A stretch of 64,000 nt of DNA from Chthoniobacterales bacterium (lineage in GTDB: Bacteria > Verrucomicrobiota > Verrucomicrobiia > Chthoniobacterales > UBA6821). The stretch lies in the NCBI GenBank assembly GCA_019747895.1, contig JAIEQF010000019.1, forward strand, positions 71,363 through 135,362, given 5' to 3'. The first letter of the stretch is position 1; each line of letters begins with the position of its first letter. Below the pieces are notes generated by a model. That model was not told the origin of the DNA, made no database searches, and was given only the letters and a program-made list of their open reading frames with translations. Shown piece after piece: positions 2,012 to 56,129 of the stretch. The translations under genes and the position numbers were made by a program.

Positions 2012-2083
<72 letters not shown>

Positions 2084-2107
2084 CTTCATCGCGAAGCGAT
2101 GAAGTTT
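2084..2107 (+). terminator. 9-bp stem / GAA triloop hairpin directly after the tRNA
   Basis: cttcatcgc-gaa-gcgatgaag followed by ttt. The U tract is short, so function as an intrinsic terminator or processing site is uncertain. Confidence 0.45.
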
Positions 2108-2253
2108 AAGTGAAAAGTATTAATGAAGTTTTTTTTGAGAAGATATGATTTCCTCTCAACAGCCGCATTAGCGGCGCTCAACAGCTGCTTCTTTATTCCC
2201 GCCTTCGCGGGAATATGACGCAGCGGCTCAACATATCAACTTCTGCCAAGCGG

Positions 2254-4538: not shown

Positions 4539-4604
4539 GAAATAGCCACAAAAGAACACAAAGAACACAAAAAAGTTCCTTTGTGTTCTTTTGTGGCTAT
4601 TCTC
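4539..4604. repeat. Word-arm hairpin, CACAAAGAA class, tight loop
   Basis: gaaatagccacaaaagaacacaaagaacacaaaaaa - gttcc - tttgtgttcttttgtggctattctc. One extra word in the left arm gives a bulge. Confidence 0.85.
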
Positions 4605-6521: not shown

Positions 6522-6586
6522 TTAGGGCGAATGGACGTGATCTCTAAAAATATTTTTGTTTGATGACTAAGCTTATTGGGAAAAAA

Positions 6587-6755
6587 GGTTGCAGGTGACA
6601 GGTTGCAGGTGACAGGAGAAGTATGTTTGCCTGTAGCAAAACGGATAATTTTTTTCTCAGAATACATCAAAGTTGAAAAAAGTGCTTTTATTGGCGAATC
6701 ATTTTTATCGAAGAGCTAATTTTTACCTGTAACCTGTAACCTGCAACCTGTAGCC
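6587..6755. repeat. Word-arm hairpin, ACAGGTT class
   Basis: Left arm ggttgcaggtgacaggttgcaggtgacagg, right arm acctgtaacctgtaacctgcaacctgtagcc, with an AT-rich loop of about 108 nt. Confidence 0.85.
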
Positions 6756-6804
6756 TTAGAGCTTTCCGGAAAAACGGGAAAATAATTTTTTTGGAAAGCT
6801 CTAA
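6756..6804. repeat. Perfect 12-bp inverted repeat ending 2 nt before the HAD start codon
   Basis: ttagagctttcc (6756-6767) against ggaaagctctaa (6793-6804). Confidence 0.8.
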
Positions 6805-7619: not shown

Positions 7620-7663
7620 AGTTAATCGACTTCATTGCTTGATAGCATTTATTTAATTGCAAT

Positions 7664-7844
7664 AGTTTGAGTGCTGTAGTTTGAGTTGCAATTCGCTCGC
7701 GCCCGCGAGGCTCACCCCTTCGGTGCTGCCTTCAGTATTTGATCCCGCGGCTGCCATGCCGCACGTATTAAAAGGCGCTTTGCGCTTTATTTTTTAAATA
7801 TGCGAAGCCTAGATAACTCAAACTCAAACTACAGTACTCAAACT
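7664..7844. repeat. Word-arm hairpin, TTTGAGT class, with a B-module in the loop
   Basis: agtttgagtgctgtagtttgagtt (7664-7687) against the reverse complement of 7821-7844, 1 mismatch in 24. Confidence 0.9.
7693..7770 (+). repeat. GC-rich B-module, copy 1 of 5
   Basis: tcgctcgcgcccgcgaggctcaccccttcggtgctgccttcag...gatcccgcggctgccatgccgcacgtatta. It aligns with 17748-17825, 20892-20969, 34056-34134 and 55689-55766. Confidence 0.85.
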
Positions 7845-7873
7845 GCTGCGGCGCATGCGAAGCAGCGATGCAG

Positions 7874-24657: not shown

Positions 24658-24727
24658 CTATATTTTTTGTAATCGTTTAGACGACTGGTTTTGAAAAAGA
24701 AAAATCCGTTTATTAATAAAGGTTTTT

Positions 24728-24829
24728 GTTGAGAGGTTGAGAGGTTGAGGGGTTGAGAGGACGCCTTTCTCTCAACGGCCGCGCCAGCGGCGCTCAACAG
24801 CTGCTTTAGCAGCGGCTCAACATCTCAAC
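24728..24829. repeat. Word-arm hairpin, GTTGAGAG class, with GC-rich palindromes in the right arm
   Basis: gttgagaggttgagaggttgaggggttgagagg against ctctcaac...gcgctcaac...ggctcaacatctcaac. Confidence 0.85.
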
Positions 24830-24886
24830 TTTTACAAAAGCAGGTTGAAGAATCTTACTCTTTGCCAAGCAACTGAACGGATACGA

Positions 24887-28235: not shown

Positions 28236-28240
28236 AAAAA

Positions 28241-28435
28241 GTTGAAGGGTTGAAACGTTGAGGGGTTGAAAAGACTTTTTCCCCTCAACTTTCTCTTTTC
28301 AATGCGAGCAGCTTTGTTTTTAAAGTAAATCAGTTCATAAAATAAAAAATGCACGAATGATTATTGGTCTGGATTTTTATTTTCTTCAACCCCTCAACCT
28401 TTCAACAGCTGCGAAGCAGCGCTCAACCTCTCAAC
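28241..28435. repeat. Word-arm hairpin, GTTGAGAG class, inserted between atpE and atpF
   Basis: gttgaagggttgaaacgttgaggggttgaaaag against cttcaacccctcaacctttcaac...gctcaacctctcaac. Also a local 9-bp stem gttgagggg/cccctcaac. Ends 9 nt before the atpF ATG. Confidence 0.9.
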
Positions 28436-31956: not shown

Positions 31957-33597
<1,641 letters not shown>

Positions 33598-34192: not shown

Positions 34193-34358
34193 TATAGTCA
34201 AATTACTTAGAACTTACAAGCAACTGATTTGTCCTTTTTGGGAAAAGACTGCGTTCTCATCCCGTCATGTTATCGTTTAGATAGCGCTCGGTCTTCGGCC
34301 TGGCCTTTTCTAAAAATTCCTGCGTTCTTCCCTGTAATTTCTAAGTAATTTGATTATA
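34193..34358. mobile_element. MITE-like element, copy 1 (about 28-nt terminal inverted repeats, TA on both flanks)
   Basis: tatagtcaaattacttagaacttacaag against the reverse complement of cctgtaatttctaagtaatttgattata (25 of 28). 8 differences in 166 nt compared with 55801-55966. It sits between an E-module (34165-34190) and a D-module (34357-34423). Confidence 0.85.
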
Positions 34359-40272: not shown

Positions 40273-40521
40273 GAAATTAACCACAAAGAACACAAAGATT
40301 ACACAAAGAACACAAAAGAATTTTTTGATAAAAAAATTCTAAGTATTAAGAAAAGAAGTCTCAATGGAAGTCTTCTTTTAATTGTTTGTAATCACAATTT
40401 TTAAAGCTTTCAATTTTATCTGCGATTGTCATTTTCAAAGCCTTAAAATTTTTTTATAAAAAATTTTATTTTGTGTTCTTTGTGTGCCGCTTTAGTAGCT
40501 TTGTGATCTTTGTGGTGAATT
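40273..40521. repeat. Word-arm hairpin, CACAAAGAA class, with about 50-nt arms
   Basis: gaaattaaccacaaagaacacaaagattacacaaagaacacaaaagaa against ttttgtgttctttgtgtgccgctttagtagctttgtgatctttgtggtgaatt. The loop holds an 8-bp stem aaaagaag/cttctttt. Ends 9 nt before the next ATG. Confidence 0.88.
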
Positions 40522-43721: not shown

Positions 43722-46700
43722 TTAATCCCCTTTTTCCTTTAACGAAGCATGAAACTCCTGAATGCTGCAGACTTCAAGCGGTCCAGCCTGCATGCTGCGG
43801 ATGGCAGCAATGCTCGCAATGGCAGCGCGGAGAACGGTGATCGTCGGGACTCCATGGGCAACAGCGGCGCTACGAATAATGATTTCATCACGCCGTGGCT
43901 GCTTGCCAGTTGGCGTGTTAATAGAGAGGTGCATCGAGCCTCCTTTGATCATGTCGAGAACATTGGGGTGTCCTTCGCTCAGTTTGTTGAGCTGAGTCAC
44001 CTTGATGCCAGCTTCTTGTAGGACAGCAGCGGTGCCGCGAGTCGCAAAGAGATCGAAGCCAAGTTCTATAAATTCTTTTACAATCGGGATGATCGCTTTT
44101 TTATCAGAGTCTTTGACGCTAACAAAAAGATTTCCTCCGAGTGGGAGAGAAGGGTGTGCCGCCATCTGCGCTTTGGCATAAGCATGTCCTAAGTCGTGAT
44201 CGAGGCCCATGACCTCACCAGTGGAGCGCATCTCAGGACCGAGCACGGTATCGGTGCCAGGGAATTTGATGAAAGGCATCACCGGTGCTTTGACACAAAA
44301 ATGAGATAGCACTACTTCCTCGGTAAAACCAAGCGCTGCCAATGTTTGGCCGGCCATGATCTTAGCGGCAAGCTTGGCAAGTGGCACTCCGATCGCCTTG
44401 CTCACAAAAGGAGAGGTGCGGGAAGCGCGAGGGTTGACTTCTAAAACATAAACCTCGTCACCTTTCACGGCAAACTGGACGTTCATAAGGCCGCGGACAT
44501 TGAGTTCCAGGGCCATCGCTTTTGTTGCTGAACGAATTTTTTCCAACACTGGAGTTGAGAGAGAGAATGTTGGAATGACACAGGCGCTGTCTCCACTGTG
44601 AATGCCAGCTTCTTCAATGTGCTCCATGATCCCTCCAATGACGCACTGGTGGCCATCTGCGAGGCAGTCGACATCAACTTCAGTAGCATCTTCTAAAAAG
44701 CGATCGATGAGCACTGGGCGCTCAGGGCTTATGGCAACAGCTACTTTGATGTAACGTCGGAGGTCGTGCTCTGCGTAGACAATTTCCATGGCGCGTCCAC
44801 CCAGCACAAAGGAAGGTCGCACTAAGACAGGATAGCCAATTCTTTCCGCGATAGCGACAGCCTCTGTTTCATTGATTGCAGTCTCTCCGAGTGTTTGACG
44901 AAGACCAAGTTTGTTAATCATCGCAGAGAAGCACTTGCGATCTTCTGCTTTCTCGATGTCTTGAGGTTGCGTTCCGATAATAGTCACGCCGCGGGCTTGC
45001 AAGGCTGCAGCAAGGTTCAAGGGAGTCTGTCCACCAAATTGCACAACGGCTGCATCGCATTGTTCGCGCTCATAGATGTTGAGAACATCTTCGAGGGTGA
45101 GGGGTTCGAAATAAAGTTTATCACTGCTATCGTAGTCGGTGGAAACTGTTTCCGGGTTGGAGTTGACCATGATTGTTTCATAGCCGGCCTCTTGAAGCGC
45201 AAAGCTAGCGTGGACGCAGCAGTAATCAAATTCAATTCCTTGGCCGATGCGGTTGGGACCACCACCGAGGATAAGAACTTTCTTTTTATCGCTGCTGCGG
45301 GTTTCATCTTCTTCGCCGTAGGTTGAATAATAGTAAGGTGTCGAAGCCTCAAACTCCGCAGCGCACGTGTCAACGAGGCGATACGTTGGGACGATTCCTT
45401 TGAGTTTTCGCTCGGCCCTGATCTCATCTTCTGGACGGCCTGAGAGGAAGGCGAGCTGATGATCCGAGAATCCTAATTTTTTAGCGCGGTGTAGCGGAAT
45501 TTGATTCGGTTGGGCGCGATACTCTTGTTCTTCTTGGACCAATTCCAAAATGTGATGGAGAAACCAAGGATCAATGCCGCTCCACTCATGGATTTCTTCA
45601 ACAGAAAGGTTGGCGAGGAACGCATAGCGAACCATAAAAATTCGCTCTGCGCAAGGGACACGCAAATTTTGTTCGATCGTTTTGAGATCCCAACTTCCAT
45701 CAGGAAGGCGAGGTTCCTTGTCTCGGCCGTCGGCACCAAGCCCAAAGCGGCCTGTTTCCAAGGAGCGAAGTGCTTTTTGAAGTGACTGTTTGAAGGTGCG
45801 GCCTAAAGCAATCACTTCACCAACGCTTTTCATCTGCGTGGTGAGGGTGGCATCAGCGAGTGGGAACTTTTCAAAAGTGAAGCGAGGAATTTTAACGACG
45901 CAATAATCGATCGCTGGTTCAAAGCACGCTGTGGTGTTTTGAGTGATATCGTTTTTAAGTTCATCCAGGCGATAACCTACAGCCAGCTTCGCAGCGATTT
46001 TTGCAATCGGATAACCAGTCGCCTTGGAAGCGAGTGCTGAAGAGCGTGAGACGCGCGGGTTCATTTCAATGACGATCATGCGTCCTGTCTTAGGATGAAC
46101 TGCAAATTGGATGTTCGATCCTCCTGTTTCTACTCCAACGGCACGAATTACAGCAAAAGAGGCATCGCGCATTCGTTGATATTCTTTGTCGGTGAGTGTT
46201 TGAATGGGAGCCACGGTGATCGAGTCGCCTGTGTGAACACCCATCGGATCAATATTCTCAATCGAGCAAATCACGATGCAGTTGTCAGCGCAGTCGCGGA
46301 TGACTTCGACTTCAAATTCTTTCCAACCGAGTAGCGATTCTTCAATGAGGATTTCGCTTGTTGGAGAGAGGTCAAGCCCATGACGTGAGATCGTCTCGAG
46401 TTCTTCGCGATTGCGAGCGATGCCGCCACCAGCTCCGCCGAGTGTAAAAGCAGGTCGAATAATCAAGGGATAGATTCCAATGCGATCGGCTTCAGCAAGG
46501 GCTTCTTCGATGGTGTGAGCTATTGCTGAGCTGGCCACTTCTAATCCAATCTCCAGCATCAACTTTTTGAAAAGGGAACGGTCTTCTCCTCGTTGGATAG
46601 CTTCTGCATTGGCTCCGATAAGGCGAACACCATGCTTTTTGAGGATGCCACGTCGCACCAGTTCCATGGAGACGTTGAGTGCCGTCTGGCCTCCCAGCGT

Positions 46701-46964
46701 AGGAAGTAACGAATCAGGTTTTTCTCGCTCAATAATTTTTTCGATGATCTCTGGAGTGATTGGCTCGATGTAAGTTCGCTGAGCAAACTCTGGATCCGTC
46801 ATGATCGTCGCTGGATTCGAATTAACCAGGACGACCTCATAGCCCTCTTCTGCTAAGGCTTTGCAGGCTTGCACTCCCGAATAATCAAACTCACATCCTT
46901 GTCCAATGACAATGGGACCGGCACCGATGAGGAGAATTTTTTTGAGAGTAGGATCTTTGGGCAT
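43722..46964 (-). CDS. carB: Carbamoyl-phosphate synthase large subunit
   Basis: 1080 aa with duplicated ATP-grasp halves, [11 protein letters not shown] / [11 protein letters not shown], and a C-terminal MGS-like domain. Confidence 0.97.
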
Positions 46965-46965
46965 T

Positions 46966-47426
46966 CTGACAGGTTATAGGTTGCAGGTTACAGGTTACAG
47001 GTAATTTTCTATAGGAAAAATTATTTTGATAGATGCACTGATTTTATTAGGGAATAAAGAACTTTTTTAGCTTCTTCTATTATTGAATGATGTTCCAAAC
47101 TGCTTTCATTCAGATATCCTAAGCGGCTTGCTAAACTCCATTGATAATCTAGTTCTTTAAGAGAGCCATAAGCAATTTCGAGATAACGAAGATACTCAGC
47201 TTGGCTTTCACGCGTGCATCCTTCAACAATATTAGAAGCTACAGAAACTGCTGCTCGACGAATTTGTGAAGTTAATCCGTAGATTTCTTCCTTGGGGAAA
47301 TTTTGTGTGCTTTTGTAAATAAGTATGGCTACTTCATCAGCTAATTGAAAAGCACGCAATTTTGTGTGATCTCTCATAAAATGTTTCTTACCTGTCACCT
47401 GCAACCTGTTACCTGTTTACCTGTTA
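46966..47426. mobile_element. Inverted-repeat-bounded insert (ACAGGTT-class arms) carrying four-helix-bundle gene 1, filling the icd-carB spacer
   Basis: Arms ctgacaggttataggttgcaggttacaggttacaggtaa (46966-47004) and ttacctgtcacctgcaacctgttacctgtttacctgtta (47388-47426). The proximal 19 nt have 2 mismatches. The right arm contains the icd stop; the left arm ends 1 nt from the carB ATG. Mobility is an inference. Confidence 0.7.
47021..47377 (-). CDS. Four-helix-bundle protein (23S rRNA intervening-sequence protein / Avd family)
   Basis: ORF trimmed to the ATG at 47377. FQLADEVAILIYKSTQNFPKEEIYGLTSQIRRAAVSVASNIVEG...YLRYLEIAYGSLKELDYQ matches the family pattern (FPkeE..L.sQlrRAa.Si..NIaEG...f...l.iA.GS..E). 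Confidence 0.9.
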   Translation of the reverse strand: MRDHTKLRAFQLADEVAILIYKSTQNFPKEEIYGLTSQIRRAAVSVASNIVEGCTRESQAEYLRYLEIAYGSLKELDYQWSLASRLGYLNESSLEHHSIIEEAKKVLYSLIKSVHLSK

Positions 47427-48872
47427 TTGGCCTTGTCCGCGGGTGAATCCTGGCTTGCCATCAAAGTTGTAAAGCAATTCTGTTTTGAGAAATTCGATAC
47501 CATCGGCGGTGATGCGTTCGAGGAGCTGGATCACGGAACGATGATCGACGGTGCCACTTGTGCCATCAGGAAGTTTGAAGCGAGCTCGAAAAGAATCAGA
47601 GCAGAAGATTCCTGGCATTCCTTTTGGCCAGACGGCCATGCCACGATTATCGATCATTTCGAGTTTCATTCCATAGCCTTCACATTGGGAAAGAATCGCG
47701 CCGAGGTCCTCTGCGGAACCTTTGGTGAATTCAACAAAGACATCAACACCGATCAGTTCTCGTTTTTCGGTTGGACGAACATAGGCAAGGACCTTGCCAA
47801 GGTTGCTCTCTCCTTTTTTATAGGTGACTGCCTTGAGTTGTTGTGGCTTTTTACCAAGACGATCAACAACAGCTTGTGCAAATTCTTTGGTGCCGACTTT
47901 TTGTTTGCTGACACCTTCTTTGAAAATGTCATAGGTGTGAATTCCATCTTCCAGCGCGCAGAGCCAGGCATTATGGGCTTTCTCGGCGACTTCGGTTTGA
48001 CCGATGTGAAGGAGCATTAAGATGCTTCCAAGAAAAAGTCCAGATGGATTGGCGAGATTTTGTCCAGCACGACGAGGAGCAGAACCGTGAATCGCTTCAA
48101 ACATCGCAGCATTAACACCAATGTTGGAGGAGCCCGCGAGGCCGACAGAACCTGCGATCTGAGCTGCTACATCAGAGAGGATATCGCCATAAAGATTCGG
48201 AAGCACAACGACATCGAAAGCCTCTGGCGTGTCTGCGAGCTTGGCTGCGCCGATGTCCACAATCCAATGTTCGTTTTCAATGTCAGGATATTGTGCTGCA
48301 ATTTCATCAAAAATTTTATGAAAAAGACCATCGGTCATCTTCATGATATTGTCTTTGGTGAAGCAAGTGACTTTTTTGCGATTATTCGCCCGTGCATATT
48401 CAAAAGCATAACGAATGATTTTTTCGCTGCCTGGACGCGAGATCAGTTTGGTGCAGCTGATGACATCTTGTGATTGGCGATGCTCGATGCCTGCGTAGAG
48501 ATCTTCTTCGTTTTCACGAACAATGACGACATCCATGACGGGATGCTTGGTAGCAACAAACGGTGCGTAGCTTACGCAAGGACGTACGTTGGCATAGAGT
48601 CCGAGGGCTTTGCGGGCAGTCACGTTCAAGCTTTTGAAGCCACCACCTTGAGGTGTGGTGATTGGAGCTTTGAGAAAAACTTTCGTGCGACGTAGTGACT
48701 CCCAAGCTGAAGGCTCGATGCCAGCAGGATTCCCAGCCAGGTAAACTTTTTCTCCAATTTCAATGCGCTCGATGTCGAGCTGTGCACCTGCTGATTGAAT
48801 AATGTGGAGAGTGGCCTCCATGATTTCGGGGCCAATGCCATCGCCGTATGCTACTGTGATCGGAGTTTTCAT
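47424..48872 (-). CDS. icd: Isocitrate dehydrogenase (about 480-aa form of the isocitrate/isopropylmalate dehydrogenase family)
   Basis: GDGIGPEI, SLNVTARK-type substrate loop and NLYGDILSD motifs. Confidence 0.88.
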   Translation of the reverse strand: MKTPITVAYGDGIGPEIMEATLHIIQSAGAQLDIERIEIGEKVYLAGNPAGIEPSAWESLRRTKVFLKAPITTPQGGGFKSLNVTARKALGLYANVRPCVSYAPFVATKHPVMDVVIVRENEEDLYAGIEHRQSQDVISCTKLISRPGSEKIIRYAFEYARANNRKKVTCFTKDNIMKMTDGLFHKIFDEIAAQYPDIENEHWIVDIGAAKLADTPEAFDVVVLPNLYGDILSDVAAQIAGSVGLAGSSNIGVNAAMFEAIHGSAPRRAGQNLANPSGLFLGSILMLLHIGQTEVAEKAHNAWLCALEDGIHTYDIFKEGVSKQKVGTKEFAQAVVDRLGKKPQQLKAVTYKKGESNLGKVLAYVRPTEKRELIGVDVFVEFTKGSAEDLGAILSQCEGYGMKLEMIDNRGMAVWPKGMPGIFCSDSFRARFKLPDGTSGTVDHRSVIQLLERITADGIEFLKTELLYNFDGKPGFTRGQGQ

Positions 48873-48920
48873 AAAAAAGTTGAGAGGTTGAGCGCTGCCT
48901 TTGGCAGCTGTTGATCGGCG

Positions 48921-49340
48921 CTAATGCGCCTGTTGAGAAGTTGAGGAGGGAGCTGTTTTTGTTTTTGCTCGCTGTTCTTGTGAAGAATGCAAAGCGCTTA
49001 ATTGAGTAGCGATTGATTTTATTGTTTTACGTTGAAAAGACAACTCTGATTCCAAAAGATAACCTTGATCAAATGCAATAATCAATAAATTCAATGATTC
49101 TAACAAAGATGAATAAGCAATATTAGAAAAGTGAGCTTGGTCTTTGTGAGACTTGCGTGCGGAACCTTCGGCTATATTTGTTGGAACAGAAACAGCAGCT
49201 CGATTCAATTGAGCTATCAATCCAAAACTTTCTTTATTTGGAAAAGAGCTGGTAATATTATAAACGGCTTTTACCCAAATCCGTGCCTCTTGCCATACTC
49301 GTAATTTTTCAAAAGTAAATAGGCTGGTATTCGTAATCAT
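48921..49340 (-). CDS. Four-helix-bundle protein (23S rRNA intervening-sequence protein / Avd family)
   Basis: FEKLRVWQEARIWVKAVYNITSSFPNKESFGLIAQLNRAAVSVPTNIAEGSAR.S.KD...F..IAYSSLLE. The C-terminal tail is translated repeat arm. Confidence 0.9.
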   Translation of the reverse strand: MITNTSLFTFEKLRVWQEARIWVKAVYNITSSFPNKESFGLIAQLNRAAVSVPTNIAEGSARKSHKDQAHFSNIAYSSLLESLNLLIIAFDQGYLLESELSFQRKTIKSIATQLSALHSSQEQRAKTKTAPSSTSQQAH

Positions 49341-49506
49341 GAAGGTTGAAAAAAGCAGTTAATCTTAAAAAGATACTTCAAATTTTGCGATCTAATTTTA
49401 GATTTTTTTTGTTAGCATTTTTGTAATCCTTCAGATTTCTGGTCAAGAATGAGCTTTATAAAACTATTTTTGTAAAAAGTTGAAAAGTTGAGTCGCTGAA
49501 AAGCAT

Positions 49507-49630
49507 CTGTTGAGCGCCGCTAGTGGGGCTGTTGAAAAGAAACCATCCTTTCAACCTCTCAACTCTTCAACAAAACCTTTGATGTAAGATTTTATTTGCT
49601 TTTGTATAATCTGGTCTTCTAAACGAATGC
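49507..49630. repeat. 124-nt element, uninterrupted copy (interrupted copy at 17699-17742 plus 17836-17910)
   Basis: The first 44 nt differ at 4 positions from 17699-17742. The last 74-75 nt differ at 7 positions from 17836-17910. Confidence 0.85.
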
Positions 49631-49717
49631 TTGCCCTCATCCCTTCAACAGGCGCGTTAGCGGCGCCTCAACAGCTGCCAAAGGCAGCGCTCAACTCTAA
49701 ACAGCCGCCGGAGGCGT

Positions 49718-50308
49718 TTAGGCGGCCAAGTGGCTCGTATCATTCCAAAGCCTGATTACCGGTTCCGAGAGATTGTGCTCGTAGCCAAGAATGCTGAGGC
49801 TGGCCGTGCTAAGAAAATAGAGTCGTCCTTCTTCCGCGGGGAGGTCTAGCCAGCGTGTGGTGAGCATTCTTAAAATATGAGCATGAGCAAAAATGAGAAT
49901 GTCACCATTGATCGCTTTCATTTTTTCAATCATTTGATCGCAGCGCTGAGCGACTTGCTTAGGAAGTTCTCCGCCAGGACAACCATCGCGAAAAATAAAC
50001 CAGTCGGGTTGAGTCTGGTGAATTTCGGTTGTCGTGCGGCCTTCATAATCACCATAGTTCCATTCTTCGAGTAGAGGATCGGGCATGACCATCGAACCGA
50101 ATCCAGCCAGTTCGCAGGTTTTAAGCGCCCGCTGGAGGGGGCTTGAAAAAACTTTAGCAAAGGTCAGTCCTTGAAGTCGCTTGCCGAGTTGCTTGGCATT
50201 TTTCTCTCCTTGCTCGGTGAGGGGAATATCAGTCATTCCCGTGTGTTGTCCTGAAAGGCTCCAAATGGTTTCGCCGTGACGAGCTAGATAAATTTTAGGA
50301 AGAGGCAT
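49718..50308 (-). CDS. Histidine phosphatase family protein (phosphoglycerate-mutase-like)
   Basis: RHGETIWS catalytic motif near the N-terminus and a later H in FAHAHILR. Confidence 0.85.
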   Translation of the reverse strand: MPLPKIYLARHGETIWSLSGQHTGMTDIPLTEQGEKNAKQLGKRLQGLTFAKVFSSPLQRALKTCELAGFGSMVMPDPLLEEWNYGDYEGRTTTEIHQTQPDWFIFRDGCPGGELPKQVAQRCDQMIEKMKAINGDILIFAHAHILRMLTTRWLDLPAEEGRLYFLSTASLSILGYEHNLSEPVIRLWNDTSHLAA

Positions 50309-50312
50309 AAGA

Positions 50313-50432
50313 ACAGGTTACAGTTTACAGGAAAAAGGTATAGTTAACCCGGATGTTTTAAATAAGGCGATTGGAATTTACTAAAAAAATTTCTGGAATA
50401 TTTTGCTGTAACCTGCAACCTGTAACCTGTAA
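50313..50432. repeat. Word-arm hairpin, ACAGGTT class, filling a divergent spacer
   Basis: acaggttacagtttacagg against ctgtaacctgcaacctgtaacctgtaa. The arms end 4 nt and 9 nt from the two divergent start codons. Confidence 0.85.
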
Positions 50433-52000: not shown

Positions 52001-52189
52001 AATTAACCGCAAAGAACGCAAAGAGCACAAAGAAAAAAATCTGACGATGATTGGCTTTTTCAAAATTATAGGGTTTGGTTATTATGTGAATGAGCACAAA
52101 ATACAAAATATCAACTAGCGAACCTGAAGCTTCGCTTTCAACTTTTTTTACTTTTTTCTTTGTGCTCTTTGCGTTTTTTGCGGTTAATT
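52001..52189. repeat. Word-arm hairpin, CACAAAGAA class, inserted between cydA and cydB
   Basis: aattaaccgcaaagaacgcaaagagcacaaagaaaaaa against the reverse complement of 52152-52189: 1 mismatch in 38 nt, with a 112-nt loop. Confidence 0.92.
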
Positions 52190-55766: not shown

Positions 55767-55800
55767 TCGTTTCTGGCACTGCATCGGCTACAACTTCATT

Positions 55801-55966
55801 TATAGTCAAATTACTTAGAACTTACAAGCAATTGACTTGTCCTTTTTAGGAAAAGACTGTGTTCTCATCCCGTCACGTTATCGTTTAGATAGCGCTCGGT
55901 CTTCGGTCTGGCCTTTTCTAAAAATTCCTGCGTTCTTCCCTGTAATTTTTAAGTAATTTGACTATA
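55801..55966. mobile_element. MITE-like element, copy 2
   Basis: About 95% identical to 34193-34358. TA at 55801-55802 and 55965-55966 flanks the core tagtcaaatt...aatttgacta. Confidence 0.85.
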
Positions 55967-56129
55967 ACATGCTCTAGTAACTGTGAGAAAAAAGCTAGGT
56001 TCGTTTTCTGGAGAAGGATTTTCTTGTAAGTGATGATCTGTTTTTTGATCCGATGCTTCTGGTAAAAAAGCGCATGGAAAATCTAAAAGAATAGGTTCGG
56101 AAGAAACATCTTCTCTCTGTTGAAAAAAA

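Follow-up and report, generated by a model that had tools for sequence, protein, structure and literature searches.

Two PF05635 genes on either side of icd

The window analysed here, a 64,000-nucleotide stretch of a Chthoniobacterales contig, contains two small genes for four-helix-bundle (4HB) proteins, gene 1 in the spacer between carB and icd and gene 2 in the spacer between icd and a phosphatase gene (Table 1). An earlier note, made from the letters of the sequence, had placed both proteins in the family of 23S rRNA intervening sequences (IVSs), and profile searches bore this out. PF05635 matched gene 1 with 112 bits (E 2e-32) and gene 2 with 106 bits (E 1.1e-30; cut-off 33.8), TIGR02436 matched them with 111.8 and 97 bits, respectively (cut-off 24), and PDB entry 2GSC (XCC0516) was matched at E 4.7e-23 by gene 1 and at E 3.8e-19 by gene 2. 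The two proteins were found to be divergent, being 43% identical over 89 aa, and their arms belong to different classes (AGGTTAC for element 1, GTTGAGR for element 2), as the note had also stated. No third copy of a 4HB gene was found within the window.

The conserved residues of the 4HB family are present in gene 1, and the invariant polar residues of the family (E31, Q38, R41, S45, N49, E52, R56, S72 and E75) suggest a precise site. 4HB homologues form pentameric rings. Searches of the 4HB protein revealed no motif of a nuclease, recombinase or transposase. The start of gene 1 is an ATG, as in 95% of homologues; a 127-aa ORF starting with TTG and the deposited 125-aa version were rejected, both starts falling within the arm. 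Gene 2 encodes 139 aa, compared with approximately 125-127 aa in its homologues; its last ~20 codons extend into the arm of element 2, which thus encodes the C-terminal tail.

Element 1 is 461 nt long and has arms of 27-39 nt with five heptamers. Period-7 arrays were identified by TRF in its 3' arm (46969-47002, 4.9 copies) and its 5' arm (47388-47426, 5.4 copies); both arms contain inverted repeats I4 and I6, and 46969-46995 is complementary to 47390-47416 (27 nt, 89%). The arms fill the carB-icd spacer, as had been described: the icd stop codon (47424-47426) lies within the 5' arm, which ends 10 nt upstream of the gene 1 ATG, and the 3' arm stops 1-4 nt short of the carB start codon (46962-46964). 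When element 1 was folded as RNA, the outer arms (46966-47004/47388-47426) formed the closing stem (z = -6.4; no shuffle was as good).

Element 2 nearly fills its spacer too, leaving 6 nt to the icd start codon (48870-48872) on the side of the 3' arm and 15 nt to the phosphatase stop codon (49718-49720) on the side of the 5' arm. The 28-nt reverse-complement identity reported earlier for its arms was confirmed (48887-48914 with 49668-49695, 100%; inverted repeat I1), and 48916-48946 pairs with 49635-49665 (inverted repeat I3, 31 nt, 81%). The 3' arm, which overlaps the final codons of gene 2, contains the direct repeat families D1 and D2. In the RNA fold of element 2 the outer arms again formed the closing stem (z = -10.0; no shuffle was as good). 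Promoter-like sites in the gene 2 leader region did not exceed shuffled expectation, so that the site at 49446-49417 is a candidate only.

Table 1. Features of the two elements and gene-less hairpins in the window (arms named in gene orientation)
Feature	Positions	Strand	Description
Element 1, 3' arm	46966-47004		Pyrimidine-rich on gene strand, TTACCTG/TAACCTG x5
Spacer, gene 1 stop to 3' arm	47005-47020		Small palindrome TTTTC-TATAG-GAAAA; conserved in relatives L081 and L093
Gene 1	47021-47377	-	118-aa PF05635/TIGR02436 4HB protein
Element 1, 5' arm	47388-47426		Purine-rich on gene strand, AGGTAAAC AGGTAAC AGGTTGC AGGTGAC AGGTAAG
Element 2, 3' arm	48879-48946		CTCAAC-type units broken by two small GC palindromes
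Gene 2	48921-49340	-	139-aa PF05635/TIGR02436 4HB protein
Gene 2 leader	49341-49473	-	A/T-rich; one promoter-like site, TTGACC-18-AAAAAT, at 49446-49417
Inner gene-less hairpin, GTTGAG class	49474-49583		Nested in element 2; left arm 49474-49536, right arm 49551-49583
Element 2, 5' arm	49635-49702		GTTGAG-type units and two small GC palindromes
Gene-less hairpin, ACAGGTT class	50313-50432		Period-7 arrays 50313-50331 and 50406-50432; score 14
Gene-less hairpin, element 1 class	6584-6765		AGGTTGC/AGGTGAC arrays facing ACCTGTA arrays; inverted repeats I9 and I17
Gene-less hairpin, ACAGGTT class	12306-12468		Inverted repeat I11 and array; convergent spacer
Gene-less hairpin, element 2 class	17681-17908		GTTGAR units and GC mini-palindromes
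Gene-less hairpin, GTTGAG class	24724-24829		Array 24728-24760; homology to 49426-49571
Gene-less hairpin, GTTGAA/GTTGAG class	28237-28406		Inverted repeat I20 and arrays

The two proteins are not Avd, a name that the earlier note had used alongside the 23S-IVS type. It is extremely improbable that the genes are remnants of diversity-generating retroelements (DGRs), that is, Avd accessory genes that have outlasted the reverse transcriptase, the template repeat and the variable repeat. Gene 1 is weakly similar to Avd models (NF033474, 28.6 bits; PF22296, 24.3 bits; phrog_3206, E 1e-8), and the prototype avd of phage BPP-1 is, like the genes here, a short ORF with a repeat close by on each side; the Avd protein of this phage (bAvd) and the protein here are distantly related in their four-helix-bundle fold, which is one that forms pentamers. 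However, these models stayed far below their cut-offs, and gene 2 matched none of them. The BPP-1 avd lacks heptamer arrays and inverted arms and lies between direct VR/TR repeats of 134 nt, unlike the inverted tandem arrays described here. A DGR has a reverse transcriptase; in agreement with the earlier note, none was found within ~8 kb on either side of the locus, nor was an integrase or transposase, and there is no long direct repeat at the locus. At other loci, moreover, the neighbours of such genes are unrelated housekeeping genes.

Gene-less hairpins in the window

Nearly half of the larger spacers in the window, including the interior of the cydAB operon, contain gene-less hairpins of this kind. 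The arms of the hairpin at 6584-6765 are separated by ~110 nt, and the one at 17681-17908 has a GC-rich insert of ~85 nt in its loop. The inner hairpin of element 2 contains the direct families D1, D2 and D5 and the inverted repeats I2 and I7, and has homologous copies at 17625-17742 and 17831-17908, at 24736-24882 and at 2145-2190.

Gene-less hairpins of these classes also bracket divergent spacers. The one at 50313-50432 encloses the spacer between the phosphatase gene (start 50308, minus strand) and cydA (start 50442, plus strand); should transcription begin within the loop, no RNA stem could form there.

The abundance of gene-less hairpins favours the explanation that inverted arrays are ordinary intergenic structures of the host (processing sites, terminators, insulators or slippage-prone repeats), in whose loops an ORF lands and survives without a functional tie. 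This explanation also fits the finding that, in rRNA, IVSs take the place of loops in helices that already existed (PMC4990558). Taken with the evidence from relatives and from other genomes given below, such a passenger gene is considered improbable.

The locus in relatives

The association of genes and arms at icd, to which the earlier note had drawn attention, also held in relatives, in which orthologous genes kept their arms. Gene 1 and its arms are present in L081 and L082, whose icd genes are 94.8% and 88.7% identical to that of the window, and the gene is absent from L095, L096 and L097. Comparison with the orthologues in L081 and L082 gave a dN/dS of 0.15-0.18, and unit number varied among relatives by both gain and loss. 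Gene 1 therefore persists vertically under purifying selection. In L093 (icd 94.2% identical) gene 1 has decayed to a pseudogene that lacks ~200 nt internally; the 3' arm is intact. This arm is nearly identical in L081 and L093 despite the decayed gene, as if it served carB, which is again in favour of host hairpins.

Gene 2 was found at the same site in L083 with 96% protein identity. The window and L083 are ~97% identical here, and the differences lie mostly in the arms, among them an indel of one 7-nt unit and a mini-hairpin loop in flipped orientation. Gene 2 is absent from L081 and L093, and these relatives have gene-less hairpins at the phosphatase-icd site instead; the one in L093 belongs to the same class, the one in L081 to another. 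This too would be expected of structures belonging to the host. The description of the gene as optional cargo, given in the earlier note, is too weak for a tie in which the repeat class goes with the protein subfamily, as presented below. A 4HB gene can still be lost with a gene-less hairpin left behind, as happened to gene 1 in L093.

Arms across genomes

A sample of 80 gene-1-like loci from Planctomycetota, Verrucomicrobiota, Bacteroidota, Desulfobacterota, Acidobacteriota, Hydrogenedentota and other phyla was analysed, inverted arms being scored with +1/-2 and compared with 371 shifted control positions in related loci. Arms with a score of 12 or more flanked 77% of 79 gene-1-like loci and 1.9% of the shifted controls; approximately one quarter of the loci had no detectable arms. 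The arm pairs of genes 1 and 2 score 18 and 28, respectively, and among the controls a score of 18 was reached by 0.5% and a score of 20 by none. A period-7/8 array was present in 79 of 110 gene-adjacent spacers (72%) versus 15 of 132 other spacers of the same loci (11%; Fisher p = 7e-23), a difference that host hairpins with a passenger gene would not predict. The period was 7 in 88 of the 131 arrays close to the gene. Of 76 loci, 43 had three or more copies of the core AGRCY upstream of the gene and 47 had them downstream, in each case on the expected strand; the same held for 3 of 252 control windows.

The median array length was 31 nt on both sides, corresponding to 4-5 units. The 5' arm is always purine-rich and ends ~10-17 nt upstream of the ATG, and the 3' arm begins at or just past the stop codon; these close fits, with no separate element ends, likewise speak against a passenger ORF. 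Unit variants follow one another in matching order in the two arms (23.2 matches out of 28 in the best register versus 18.0 when shifted).

Gene-1-like proteins were accompanied by AGRCT or AGGTT 7-mers and gene-2-like proteins (60-70% identity) by GTTGAR or GTTTAG 8-mers; elements of the latter type sit in gyrA-secA, atpD-atpC and sugar-operon spacers. Viral gene-1-like copies had arms in 13 of 13 cases, and more divergent family members on viral contigs in 47 of 58, with many different units; phage tail-tube genes adjoin L108 and L111, the two viral loci scanned for neighbouring ORFs. Inverted heptamer arms with the units GGGTGTA, GGCAGAA or GGGAAAA were found in five of six cyanobacterial plasmid copies, and one cyanobacterial copy had direct instead of inverted arrays. 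Heptameric intergenic repeats are known in cyanobacteria as STRR heptamers.

These data indicate that the PF05635 ORF and its inverted arrays of ~4-5 tandem 7-8-nt units are one heritable unit, because the repeat class goes with the protein subfamily from phylum to phylum. The correspondence extends over unrelated hosts and phage contigs, which is difficult to reconcile with host hairpins. The module of gene and arms is found in many bacterial phyla and in phage contigs, each protein subfamily has its own unit sequence, and the elements occupy spacers between housekeeping genes, often within operons.

Element orientation was roughly random with respect to the neighbouring genes; consequently, many copies could not be translated from read-through transcripts. 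Arm mismatches showed no G:U bias on the gene sense strand (94 sense-type, 82 antisense-type and 226 transversions), and relative to the orientation of the flanking genes, for which ORF calls were crude, the bias was reversed (33 versus 58).

An IVS-type element as the probable explanation

The explanation that we favour, with a probability of roughly 60%, is that genes 1 and 2 each form the centre of a compact element of IVS type, composed of the ORF and inverted arrays of 7-8-nt units, whose stem would be cut by RNase III. Upon read-through transcription by the host, the arms would pair as a ~30-bp stem. By analogy with the IVSs of Coxiella and Leptospira, RNase III would cut this stem, and the cut would free the RNA of the small ORF and separate the flanking cistrons, leaving the host unharmed. 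The 4HB protein probably recognises its own repeat class. Evidence against this explanation comes from the lack of a G:U bias in the arm mismatches, the roughly random orientation of the elements, the gene-less hairpins around divergent spacers, the loci without detectable arms, the direct arrays of one cyanobacterial copy and the Coxiella authors' failure to find evidence for the IVS protein in vivo.

It is unlikely, although several observations fit it, that the system acts at the DNA level in the manner of REP/RAYT, the 4HB protein binding, maintaining or spreading DNA hairpins or terminal repeats of its cognate unit, with gene-less hairpins as non-autonomous copies and the RNA stem incidental. 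Around the gene lie inverted copies of a repeat class that is scattered, without the gene, through the same genome as well, a pattern also shown by Xanthomonas, and the class follows the protein subfamily. Random insertion orientation, mismatches without an RNA-specific signature, arms sharing unit-variant order like true inverted copies, DNA-type changes between relatives (unit indels and the flipped loop) and the set of invariant polar residues are all compatible with it. On the other hand, the 4HB protein has no known catalytic fold in addition to lacking the motifs searched for, the gene-less hairpins differ widely and no near-identical recent copies were seen, the elements stay at orthologous sites over long divergence, and no target-site duplication was seen.

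The proposal of the earlier note that the hairpins may be IVSs living in mRNA spacers is largely supported, and the build shared with the Coxiella IVS supports it directly; cleavage by RNase III in these spacers would follow by analogy. No paper linking the 4HB gene-plus-arms module to IVSs in mRNA spacers was found.

Comparison with known systems

RAYTs are HUH tyrosine transposases of the IS200/IS605 kind. Like REP/REPIN-RAYT systems, the elements here comprise a single-copy gene flanked by inverted copies of a short repeat, which is also dispersed between genes in many gene-less copies, each repeat class being paired with its own gene variant. They differ in that the protein is a four-helix bundle without known catalytic activity and in that the repeats are tandem 7-8-nt unit arrays, whereas REPs are single palindromes.

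In Xanthomonas, ~186 GGGAATC arrays were listed, including 70 convergent inverted pairs inside operons, and a 4-unit array abuts XCC0516, the crystallised family member (PMC4692102, Table S2A); Nostoc has heptameric intergenic arrays of GGGGA(C/T)T (Rehm et al. 2015, PMC4692102). These arrays share with those here 7-nt tandem units with a preference for ~4 units (28 nt), positions adjoining stop and start codons in intra-operon spacers, many convergent inverted pairs, spaced by 21-67 nt and with the G-rich strand reading inward, and a repeat length that varies between relatives. They were read as G-quadruplex candidates in PMC4692102, where the 4HB family is not mentioned although its own table has the array at XCC0516; the units here (AGGTTAC, GTTGAGA, CACAAAGAA) lack the G3 tracts of the Xanthomonas and Nostoc arrays.

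ORF-bearing IVSs in the 23S rRNA of Coxiella burnetii and Leptospira were reportedly described by Ralph and McClelland in 1993. Their ORFs belong to the same family, PF05635, as genes 1 and 2. The Coxiella IVS measures 428-444 nt, similar to the size of element 1, and has a 28-bp terminal stem; two or three tandem GACAGAT heptamers, in a copy number that varies among strains, lie just 5' of the ATG of its ORF, and RNase III cuts at the first repeat (Warrier et al. 2016, PMC4990558). The heptamer content of its 3' arm was deduced from the text of that paper. Both kinds of element thus have terminal inverted repeats of ~28 bp enclosing the ORF and purine-rich tandem heptamers immediately upstream of the ATG, with unit numbers differing between strains. 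Some lineages of both have lost an internal part of the ORF, 176 bp in one Coxiella strain (PMC4990558), and both are sporadically distributed, which suggests horizontal transfer.

Unlike the IVSs, which reside in rRNA helices 9, 25 or 45, the elements here lie between protein-coding genes, in either orientation relative to them, and their protein is under purifying selection, whereas the Coxiella ORF was reported to be decaying and not expressed, its authors having no evidence for the IVS protein in vivo (PMC4990558). RNase III cleavage has been shown for the rRNA IVSs and would apply to the spacer copies by analogy only. The ORF-bearing 23S rRNA IVSs appear to represent this element after insertion into a helix of the rRNA.

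Family assignment of the two genes

Both small ORFs beside icd are strong members of the PF05635/TIGR02436 family (23S rRNA-intervening-sequence protein; four helix bundle protein), as the earlier note had proposed. Gene 1, a 118-aa four-helix-bundle (4HB) ORF in the icd-carB spacer, scored 112 bits against PF05635 and gene 2, a 139-aa ORF in the phosphatase-icd spacer, scored 106.4 bits (cut-off 33.8); the TIGR02436 scores were 111.8 and 97 bits, respectively (cut-off 24). The two proteins were 43% identical. All residues of the polar motif Q-x2-R-x3-S-x3-N-x2-E-G were found in gene 1 (Q38, R41, S45, N49, E52 and G53), and these positions were at least 99% conserved among 242 sequences and invariant or nearly so in a 26-sequence alignment that included gene 2. 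The invariant set of the family comprises E31, Q38, R41, S45, N49, E52, R56, S72 and E75. The polar motif of the family has been given as GxxRxxxSxxxNxxE (PMC3936711). In sequence searches, 2GSC (XCC0516, a crystallised pentameric PF05635 member, five chains) was matched by gene 1 with E 4.7e-23 and by gene 2 with E 3.8e-19, and 2RLD was also matched by gene 1. No third 4HB copy was found within the window. No database record agreed exactly with the 118-aa product of gene 1, because the deposited version begins 7 codons upstream, inside the arm. With gene 1 as the query, 17,242 representatives of 50%-identity clusters were retrieved (E <=0.001), and a metagenome scan with gene 2 returned one locus.

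The label Avd (the accessory protein of diversity-generating retroelements, DGRs), which had been attached to both proteins, should be corrected. The scores of gene 1 were far below the cut-offs of both Avd models (28.6 bits for NF033474, the Avd equivalog, cut-off 80; 24.3 bits for PF22296, bAvd, cut-off 40), and gene 2 matched neither model. It had been stated correctly that no reverse transcriptase or DGR repeats were visible: no reverse transcriptase was found among ten ORFs scanned at ~39.4-43.7 kb and 50.4-58.2 kb, and no long direct repeat of the template/variable type was found in 46800-49900. The prototype DGR avd of phage BPP-1, used as a control, had neither arrays nor inverted arms and sits between direct 134-nt VR and TR repeats, in contrast to the inverted tandem arrays around gene 1 and gene 2. 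A degenerate DGR as the origin of both genes is excluded for practical purposes.

Arms and predicted hairpins

Features of the window referred to in the text
Feature	Position	Strand	Basis
carB	43722-46964	-	sequence reading
Gene 1 (4HB)	47021-47377	-	sequence reading
icd	47424-48872	-	sequence reading
Gene 2 (4HB)	48921-49340	-	sequence reading
Phosphatase	49718-50308	-	sequence reading
Gene 1 arm pair	46969-46995 with 47390-47416		inverted-repeat search
Gene 2 arm pair	48887-48914 with 49668-49695		inverted-repeat search
Gene 2 second arm pair	48916-48946 with 49635-49665		
Inner hairpin of element 2	49474-49583		
78-nt block, copy in element 2	49551-49628		
78-nt block, copy in a gene-less hairpin	17831-17908		
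Gene-less hairpin, cydA-cydB spacer	52001-52189		
CACAAAGAA class, further sites	2882-2998, 4541-4601, 31970-32132, 40275-40521		
AGTTTGAGT class	7652-7849		
GC-rich block	7688-7790, 17738-17826		
~166-nt element	34193-34358, 55800-55967		
tRNA-Lys (CTT)	2012-2084		
GTTGAG-class arm fragments	2145-2240		

Both arm pairs were recovered where the earlier note had placed them. The arms of element 1 (gene 1 with its arms) paired over 27 nt (89%). In element 2, which comprises gene 2, its arms and an inner gene-less hairpin, the arms paired over 28 nt (100%), and a second pair extended over 31 nt (81%). The arms measured 27-39 nt in element 1 and ~60 nt in element 2, and they filled the spacers around icd, as had been described: one arm lay 1-4 nt from the carB ATG, and the other contained the icd stop codon. 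Scored in the same way as the related loci, the arm pairs reached 18 (gene 1) and 28 (gene 2), while among 371 control positions 0.5% reached a score of 18 and none reached 20. In the predicted RNA folds, the outer arms formed the closing stem (z = -6.4 for element 1 and -10 for element 2).

In the orientation of gene 1, the upstream arm consisted of five units (AGGTAAAC AGGTAAC AGGTTGC AGGTGAC AGGTAAG) ending 10 nt before the ATG, and the downstream arm (TTACCTG TAACCTG TAACCTG CAACCTA TAACCTG) began 16 nt past the stop codon. The gene 2 arm was composed of GTTGAG-type units broken by two small GC palindromes, with the complement on the opposite side. The inner hairpin of element 2, located upstream of gene 2, was complete, smaller and of the GTTGAG class.

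Known signals were also considered. An Rfam search over 46-51 kb gave no match at E <=1, and promoter/terminator scan counts were not above shuffled expectation. A Shine-Dalgarno-like reading of the 5' arm (AGG, GGAGG) suited some unit classes but not GTTGAAAC or CACAAAGAA. Some units resembled the integron attC core GTTRRRY/RYYYAAC, but most missed the consensus; moreover, the polarity of the gene-less hairpins was opposite to that of attC, and no integrase was found nearby.

Association of genes and arms in other genomes

A scan with one genome per species yielded 80 loci with gene-1-like proteins (46-69% identical) in Planctomycetota, Verrucomicrobiota, Bacteroidota, Desulfobacterota, Acidobacteriota, Hydrogenedentota, Spirochaetota and other phyla. 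A flanking inverted repeat scoring at least 12 was found at 77% of 79 loci versus 1.9% of shifted positions; about a quarter of the loci had no detectable arms. Arrays of period 7/8 occurred in 72% of the spacers beside the 4HB gene (79/110) versus 11% of other spacers of the same loci (15/132; Fisher p = 7e-23). Three or more occurrences of the core AGRCY on the expected strand were counted upstream in 43/76 cases and downstream in 47/76, as compared with 3/252 control windows. The period of the near-gene arrays was 7 in 88 of 131 and 14 in 20 more. At gene-1-like loci, the upstream unit was AGRCT followed by two variable bases and the downstream unit was its complement, the first downstream unit often including the stop codon. 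The median array length was 31 nt on either side, that is, 4-5 units, with median gaps of 17 nt from array to ATG and 10 nt from stop codon to array.

The order of unit variants agreed between the two arms (23.2 of 28 matches in the best register versus 18.0 when shifted by whole units), a soft result since the best register was chosen for the comparison. Telomerase-like or reverse-transcriptase repeat addition at both sides of a break would explain this shared order as well as the inward-reading purine-rich polarity; it was set aside because there was no linked reverse transcriptase.

Genes for gene-2-like proteins were found in gyrA-secA, atpD-atpC and sugar-operon spacers with the 8-mers GTTGAARY, GTTGAKRR or AGTTTAGG, and at one such locus an outer GC mini-palindrome of the gene 2 kind was present. 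Among cyanobacterial plasmid copies, 5/6 had inverted heptamer arms (GGGTGTA, GGCAGAA, GGGAAAA). On plasmid pPg_01 of Pseudanabaena galeata (L099, 45668-47137), the 4HB gene is flanked by cas6 and cas4, and its arrays are long and direct, not inverted, with (AAAAGCT)x16 upstream and (AAAAGCC)x9 downstream. This arrangement may explain earlier reports of the 4HB family inside cas loci (PMC3936711). In viral contigs, arms were found in 13/13 gene-1-like copies and in 47/58 more divergent members, which had many different units, the upstream one always purine-rich. At the only two viral loci scanned for neighbours (IMG/VR contigs L108, 2004-2435, and L111, 2894-3316), arm-bearing 4HB elements adjoined phage tail-tube genes, with a head-tail joining gene also nearby in L111; both elements were antisense to the phage genes, within structural modules of phage or prophage contigs.

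The comparison of the gene-1-like, gene-2-like, cyanobacterial and viral subfamilies indicated that the unit class tracks the protein subfamily across unrelated hosts. Therefore, it may be concluded that gene and arms are one unit and not a chance gene in a host hairpin. Accordingly, the word "cargo", by which the earlier note had described the genes, should be corrected. A purely passive passenger gene in a hairpin is unlikely.

Rfam matches in 20 related loci were limited to tRNAs and one group II intron, without rRNA context. Own and foreign flanks could not be told apart by the duplex energies of 150-nt stretches because units are common to different loci. No match was obtained with PADLOC or by tblastn against GenBank phages. 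Separately, five loci of Pirellulaceae (L026, L031, L043, L049 and L068; Rubripirellula, Stieleria, Novipirellula and strain SH139) were found to share one conserved upstream flank, which suggests retention at one site over long times. At L068, the only one of the five scanned with Rfam, tRNA genes were present on both sides.

History of the elements at the icd locus

Relatives were ordered by icd identity to the window.

State of the two element sites in relatives at icd
Relative	icd identity	Gene 1 site	Gene 2 site
L083	99%	outside coverage	element 2 present, ~97% nt identity
L081	94.8%	gene 1 present, 89% aa; same arms, three upstream units vs five	gene-less GAGTTTAG hairpin
L093	94.2%	gene 1 a pseudogene	gene-less GTTGAG-class hairpin
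L082	88.7%	gene 1 present, 75% aa; downstream arm grown to six 17-nt units	upstream context differs
L095, L096, L097	91%, 88%, 81%	icd-carB spacer without gene	context not the same

The association of genes with arms around icd, as initially proposed, was borne out in L081 and L082, where gene 1 was accompanied by arms. Gene-less hairpins occupied the gene 2 site in L081 and L093; gene 1 was absent from L095-L097. Most differences between L083 and the window were located in the arms and included an indel of one 7-nt unit and a flipped mini-hairpin loop. The pseudogene of L093 had a ~200-nt internal deletion and a stop codon; its upstream arm was decayed, and the downstream arm, before carB, was intact. 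It follows from this pattern of presence, decay and absence that the element at icd is an old resident, vertically inherited and repeatedly lost, which is able to leave a gene-less hairpin.

The dN/dS of gene 1 was 0.15-0.18, which indicates purifying selection. Between the window and L081, the dS of gene 1 (0.42) was less than half of that of the adjacent icd (1.06), and the 40-nt arm before carB was almost unchanged. This reflects either nucleotide-level constraint or an exchange more recent than the divergence of the flanks. Family identity was 65-72% between phyla versus 75% within the order (Chthoniobacterales, from a MAG of which the window was taken); these values and the phage copies suggest horizontal spread as well.

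It was also observed that the icd-carB spacers of L095 (3935-4375) and L096 (3935-4490) contained copies of another palindromic repeat (GTCATTCCCGCGGAGGCGGGAATCCAGG-like) and different C/T-rich unit arrays just before the carB ATG.

Gene-less hairpins in the window

Many gene-less hairpins were found in the window. They belonged to four unit classes (ACAGGTT, GTTGAGR, CACAAAGAA and AGTTTGAGT) and were located in co-directional, convergent and divergent spacers and also between cydA and cydB. In every one of them, the purine-rich version formed the left arm. Because the inverted repeat is identical on both strands, transcripts crossing it either way meet the purine-rich arm first. A profile built from 122 family members detected no gene remnants in the loops of the gene-less hairpins of the window, and the proposal that all empty hairpins are decayed genes is thus not demonstrated, although the pseudogene-bearing relative L093 is one clear case of such decay.

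The hairpin in the cydA-cydB spacer, within the operon, was strong, with 38-nt arms that were 97% complementary and composed of CGCAAAGAA-type 9-mers. The listed sites of the CACAAAGAA class and the AGTTTGAGT class were without a 4HB gene in the window. A 78-nt block of element 2 recurred with 92% identity in a gene-less hairpin located at a distance of 31 kb. Read on the minus strand, this block looks like a short conserved peptide end, IRLEDQ[IM]IQK[QK]IKSYI[KE]GFVEELR[GA]*, running into the repeat array, and it was not recognised as a 4HB remnant by the family profile. A GC-rich block of ~80-85 nt, CGCTCGC.CCCGCGAGGCTC.CC.CTTCGG.GCTGCCTTCAG...GGCGGCTGCCA.GCCG..CGTATTAA, was nested in the loops of two hairpins that differ in unit class, with ~79% column identity between the copies. 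It had no Rfam match and may represent another, smaller element, either mobile or structured. The two copies of the ~166-nt element, ~93-95% identical with ~31-nt terminal inverted repeats (TATAGTCAAATTACTTAGAACTTACAAGCAA), also had no Rfam match; the element resembles a miniature inverted-repeat element and has no relation to the heptamer hairpins. The tRNA-Lys gene shared its spacer with GTTGAG-class arm fragments. Over the whole window, Rfam returned one tRNA only and no rRNA.

Possible mechanism

The best-supported reading is that of an IVS-type element (IVS, intervening sequence of 23S rRNA) living in mRNA spacers. In this respect, the main idea of the earlier note was largely right, given the family, the arms and the Coxiella-like anatomy. 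Upon read-through transcription, the two arms would pair into a ~30-bp stem, which, by analogy with the homologous rRNA elements, would be cut by RNase III. The RNA of the small ORF would thus be released and the flanking cistrons separated. The protein, a pentameric ring in solved homologues, may recognise its own repeats, as is suggested by units that are specific to each subfamily, a constant period and array lengths of 4-5 units.

However, several results call for caution about these last steps. On the gene strand, the arm mismatches showed no G:U tolerance (94 vs 82, with 226 transversions). In the sense of the flanking genes (L001-L080, the gene-1-like loci), 33 G:U-type versus 58 antisense-type mismatches were counted, with crude ORF orientation calls and small numbers; this is the opposite of the expectation for an RNA stem selected in host transcripts. 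In addition, the orientation of the elements relative to their neighbours was approximately random, gene-less hairpins also bracketed divergent spacers, and arms were not detectable at the aforementioned quarter of loci.

A serious rival is a DNA-level partnership of protein and repeats similar to that of REP/RAYT (REPIN) systems, in which a gene likewise lies between inverted copies of a repeat that is also dispersed gene-less, as the ACAGGTT and GTTGAG classes are in the window. However, the product of the REP/RAYT gene is an HUH tyrosine transposase like those of IS200/IS605, whereas the only significant Pfam matches here were 4HB families (PF05635 for both proteins, with sub-threshold PF22296 for gene 1).

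Implications

No function has been assigned to the large PF05635 family. Should gene and arms form a single element, the IVS ORFs, the excess heptamer tandem repeats of bacterial intergenic DNA and the operon-embedded genes annotated as "four helix bundle protein" (in cas, atp and acc operons, among others) would be one and the same. The repeat units predict a ligand for each protein, with (GGGAAUC)4, (AGGUUAC)5 and (GUUGAGAG)4 as candidate examples. For XCC0516, both a crystal structure and a defined unit beside its gene, GGGAATC, are available. The rule that PF05635 genes are wrapped in subfamily-specific arrays is directly testable. The presence of the module in phage structural operons offers a possible route between phyla.

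A broader and rather doubtful proposal is that PF05635 proteins are the long-missing partner of intergenic tandem heptamer arrays (Xanthomonas GGGAATC, cyanobacterial STRR-type and Planctomycetota/Verrucomicrobiota arrays). The unit recognised would be particular to each subfamily, perhaps with one unit for every subunit of the pentamer, and each gene would be enclosed by two sites for its own product. Hundreds of gene-less hairpins punctuating operons would be generated, maintained or regulated by this system, and rRNA IVSs would be copies that landed in rRNA. If true, the partnership would resemble that of REP/RAYT but rest on an altogether different protein.

Comparison with known systems

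Rehm et al. 2015 described ~186 GGGAATC heptamer arrays per Xanthomonas genome, with four units preferred and placement against stop codons, including 70 convergent inverted pairs, 21-67 nt apart, in operons such as groES-groEL, atpA-atpG, atpD-atpC and gltD-gltB (PMC4692102). Row 15 of their Table S2A is a four-unit array between bccP (XCC0517) and XCC0516 that overlaps the annotated XCC0516 start; the PF05635 family goes unmentioned in that paper (PMC4692102). The period, copy number and convergent pairing match those of the arrays studied here. However, G-quadruplex-forming arrays of that kind have four or more tandem heptamers with a G3+ tract in each, whereas the G runs of the AGGTTAC-like and GTTGAGR-like units are of 1-2, and a G-quadruplex role of the arms was rejected because these units are without G3 tracts. 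In a full-text search of incomplete coverage, no paper linking non-rRNA PF05635 genes to flanking inverted repeat arrays was found, which is absence of evidence only. The wrapping of PF05635 genes in subfamily-specific inverted tandem arrays of 7-8-nt units, with rRNA IVSs as a special case, appears undescribed.

The elements also resemble ORF-bearing rRNA IVSs, which RNase III cuts out of the transcript and whose flanks are not religated. The Coxiella IVS, of 428-444 nt, lies within helix 45 of the 23S rRNA; its terminal stem measures 28 bp, and its loop contains an ORF of the PF05635 family (PMC4990558). Its 5' part contains 2-3 tandem heptamers GACAGAT and a degenerate one directly upstream of the ATG; the copy number differs between strains, the RNase III cut is at the start of the first repeat, and one strain has a 176-bp ORF deletion (PMC4990558). 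In the elements studied here, a long predicted stem (arms of 27-39 and ~60 nt) likewise encloses a PF05635 ORF, and the number of tandem units upstream of the ATG is variable (five in element 1, three in the relative L081). These elements differ in location, since ORF-bearing rRNA IVSs occupy rRNA helix 9, 25 or 45, whereas the elements here occupy the carB-icd and icd-phosphatase spacers. The elements here reproduce the anatomy of the Coxiella IVS, and even the kinds of variation that separate relatives are the same.
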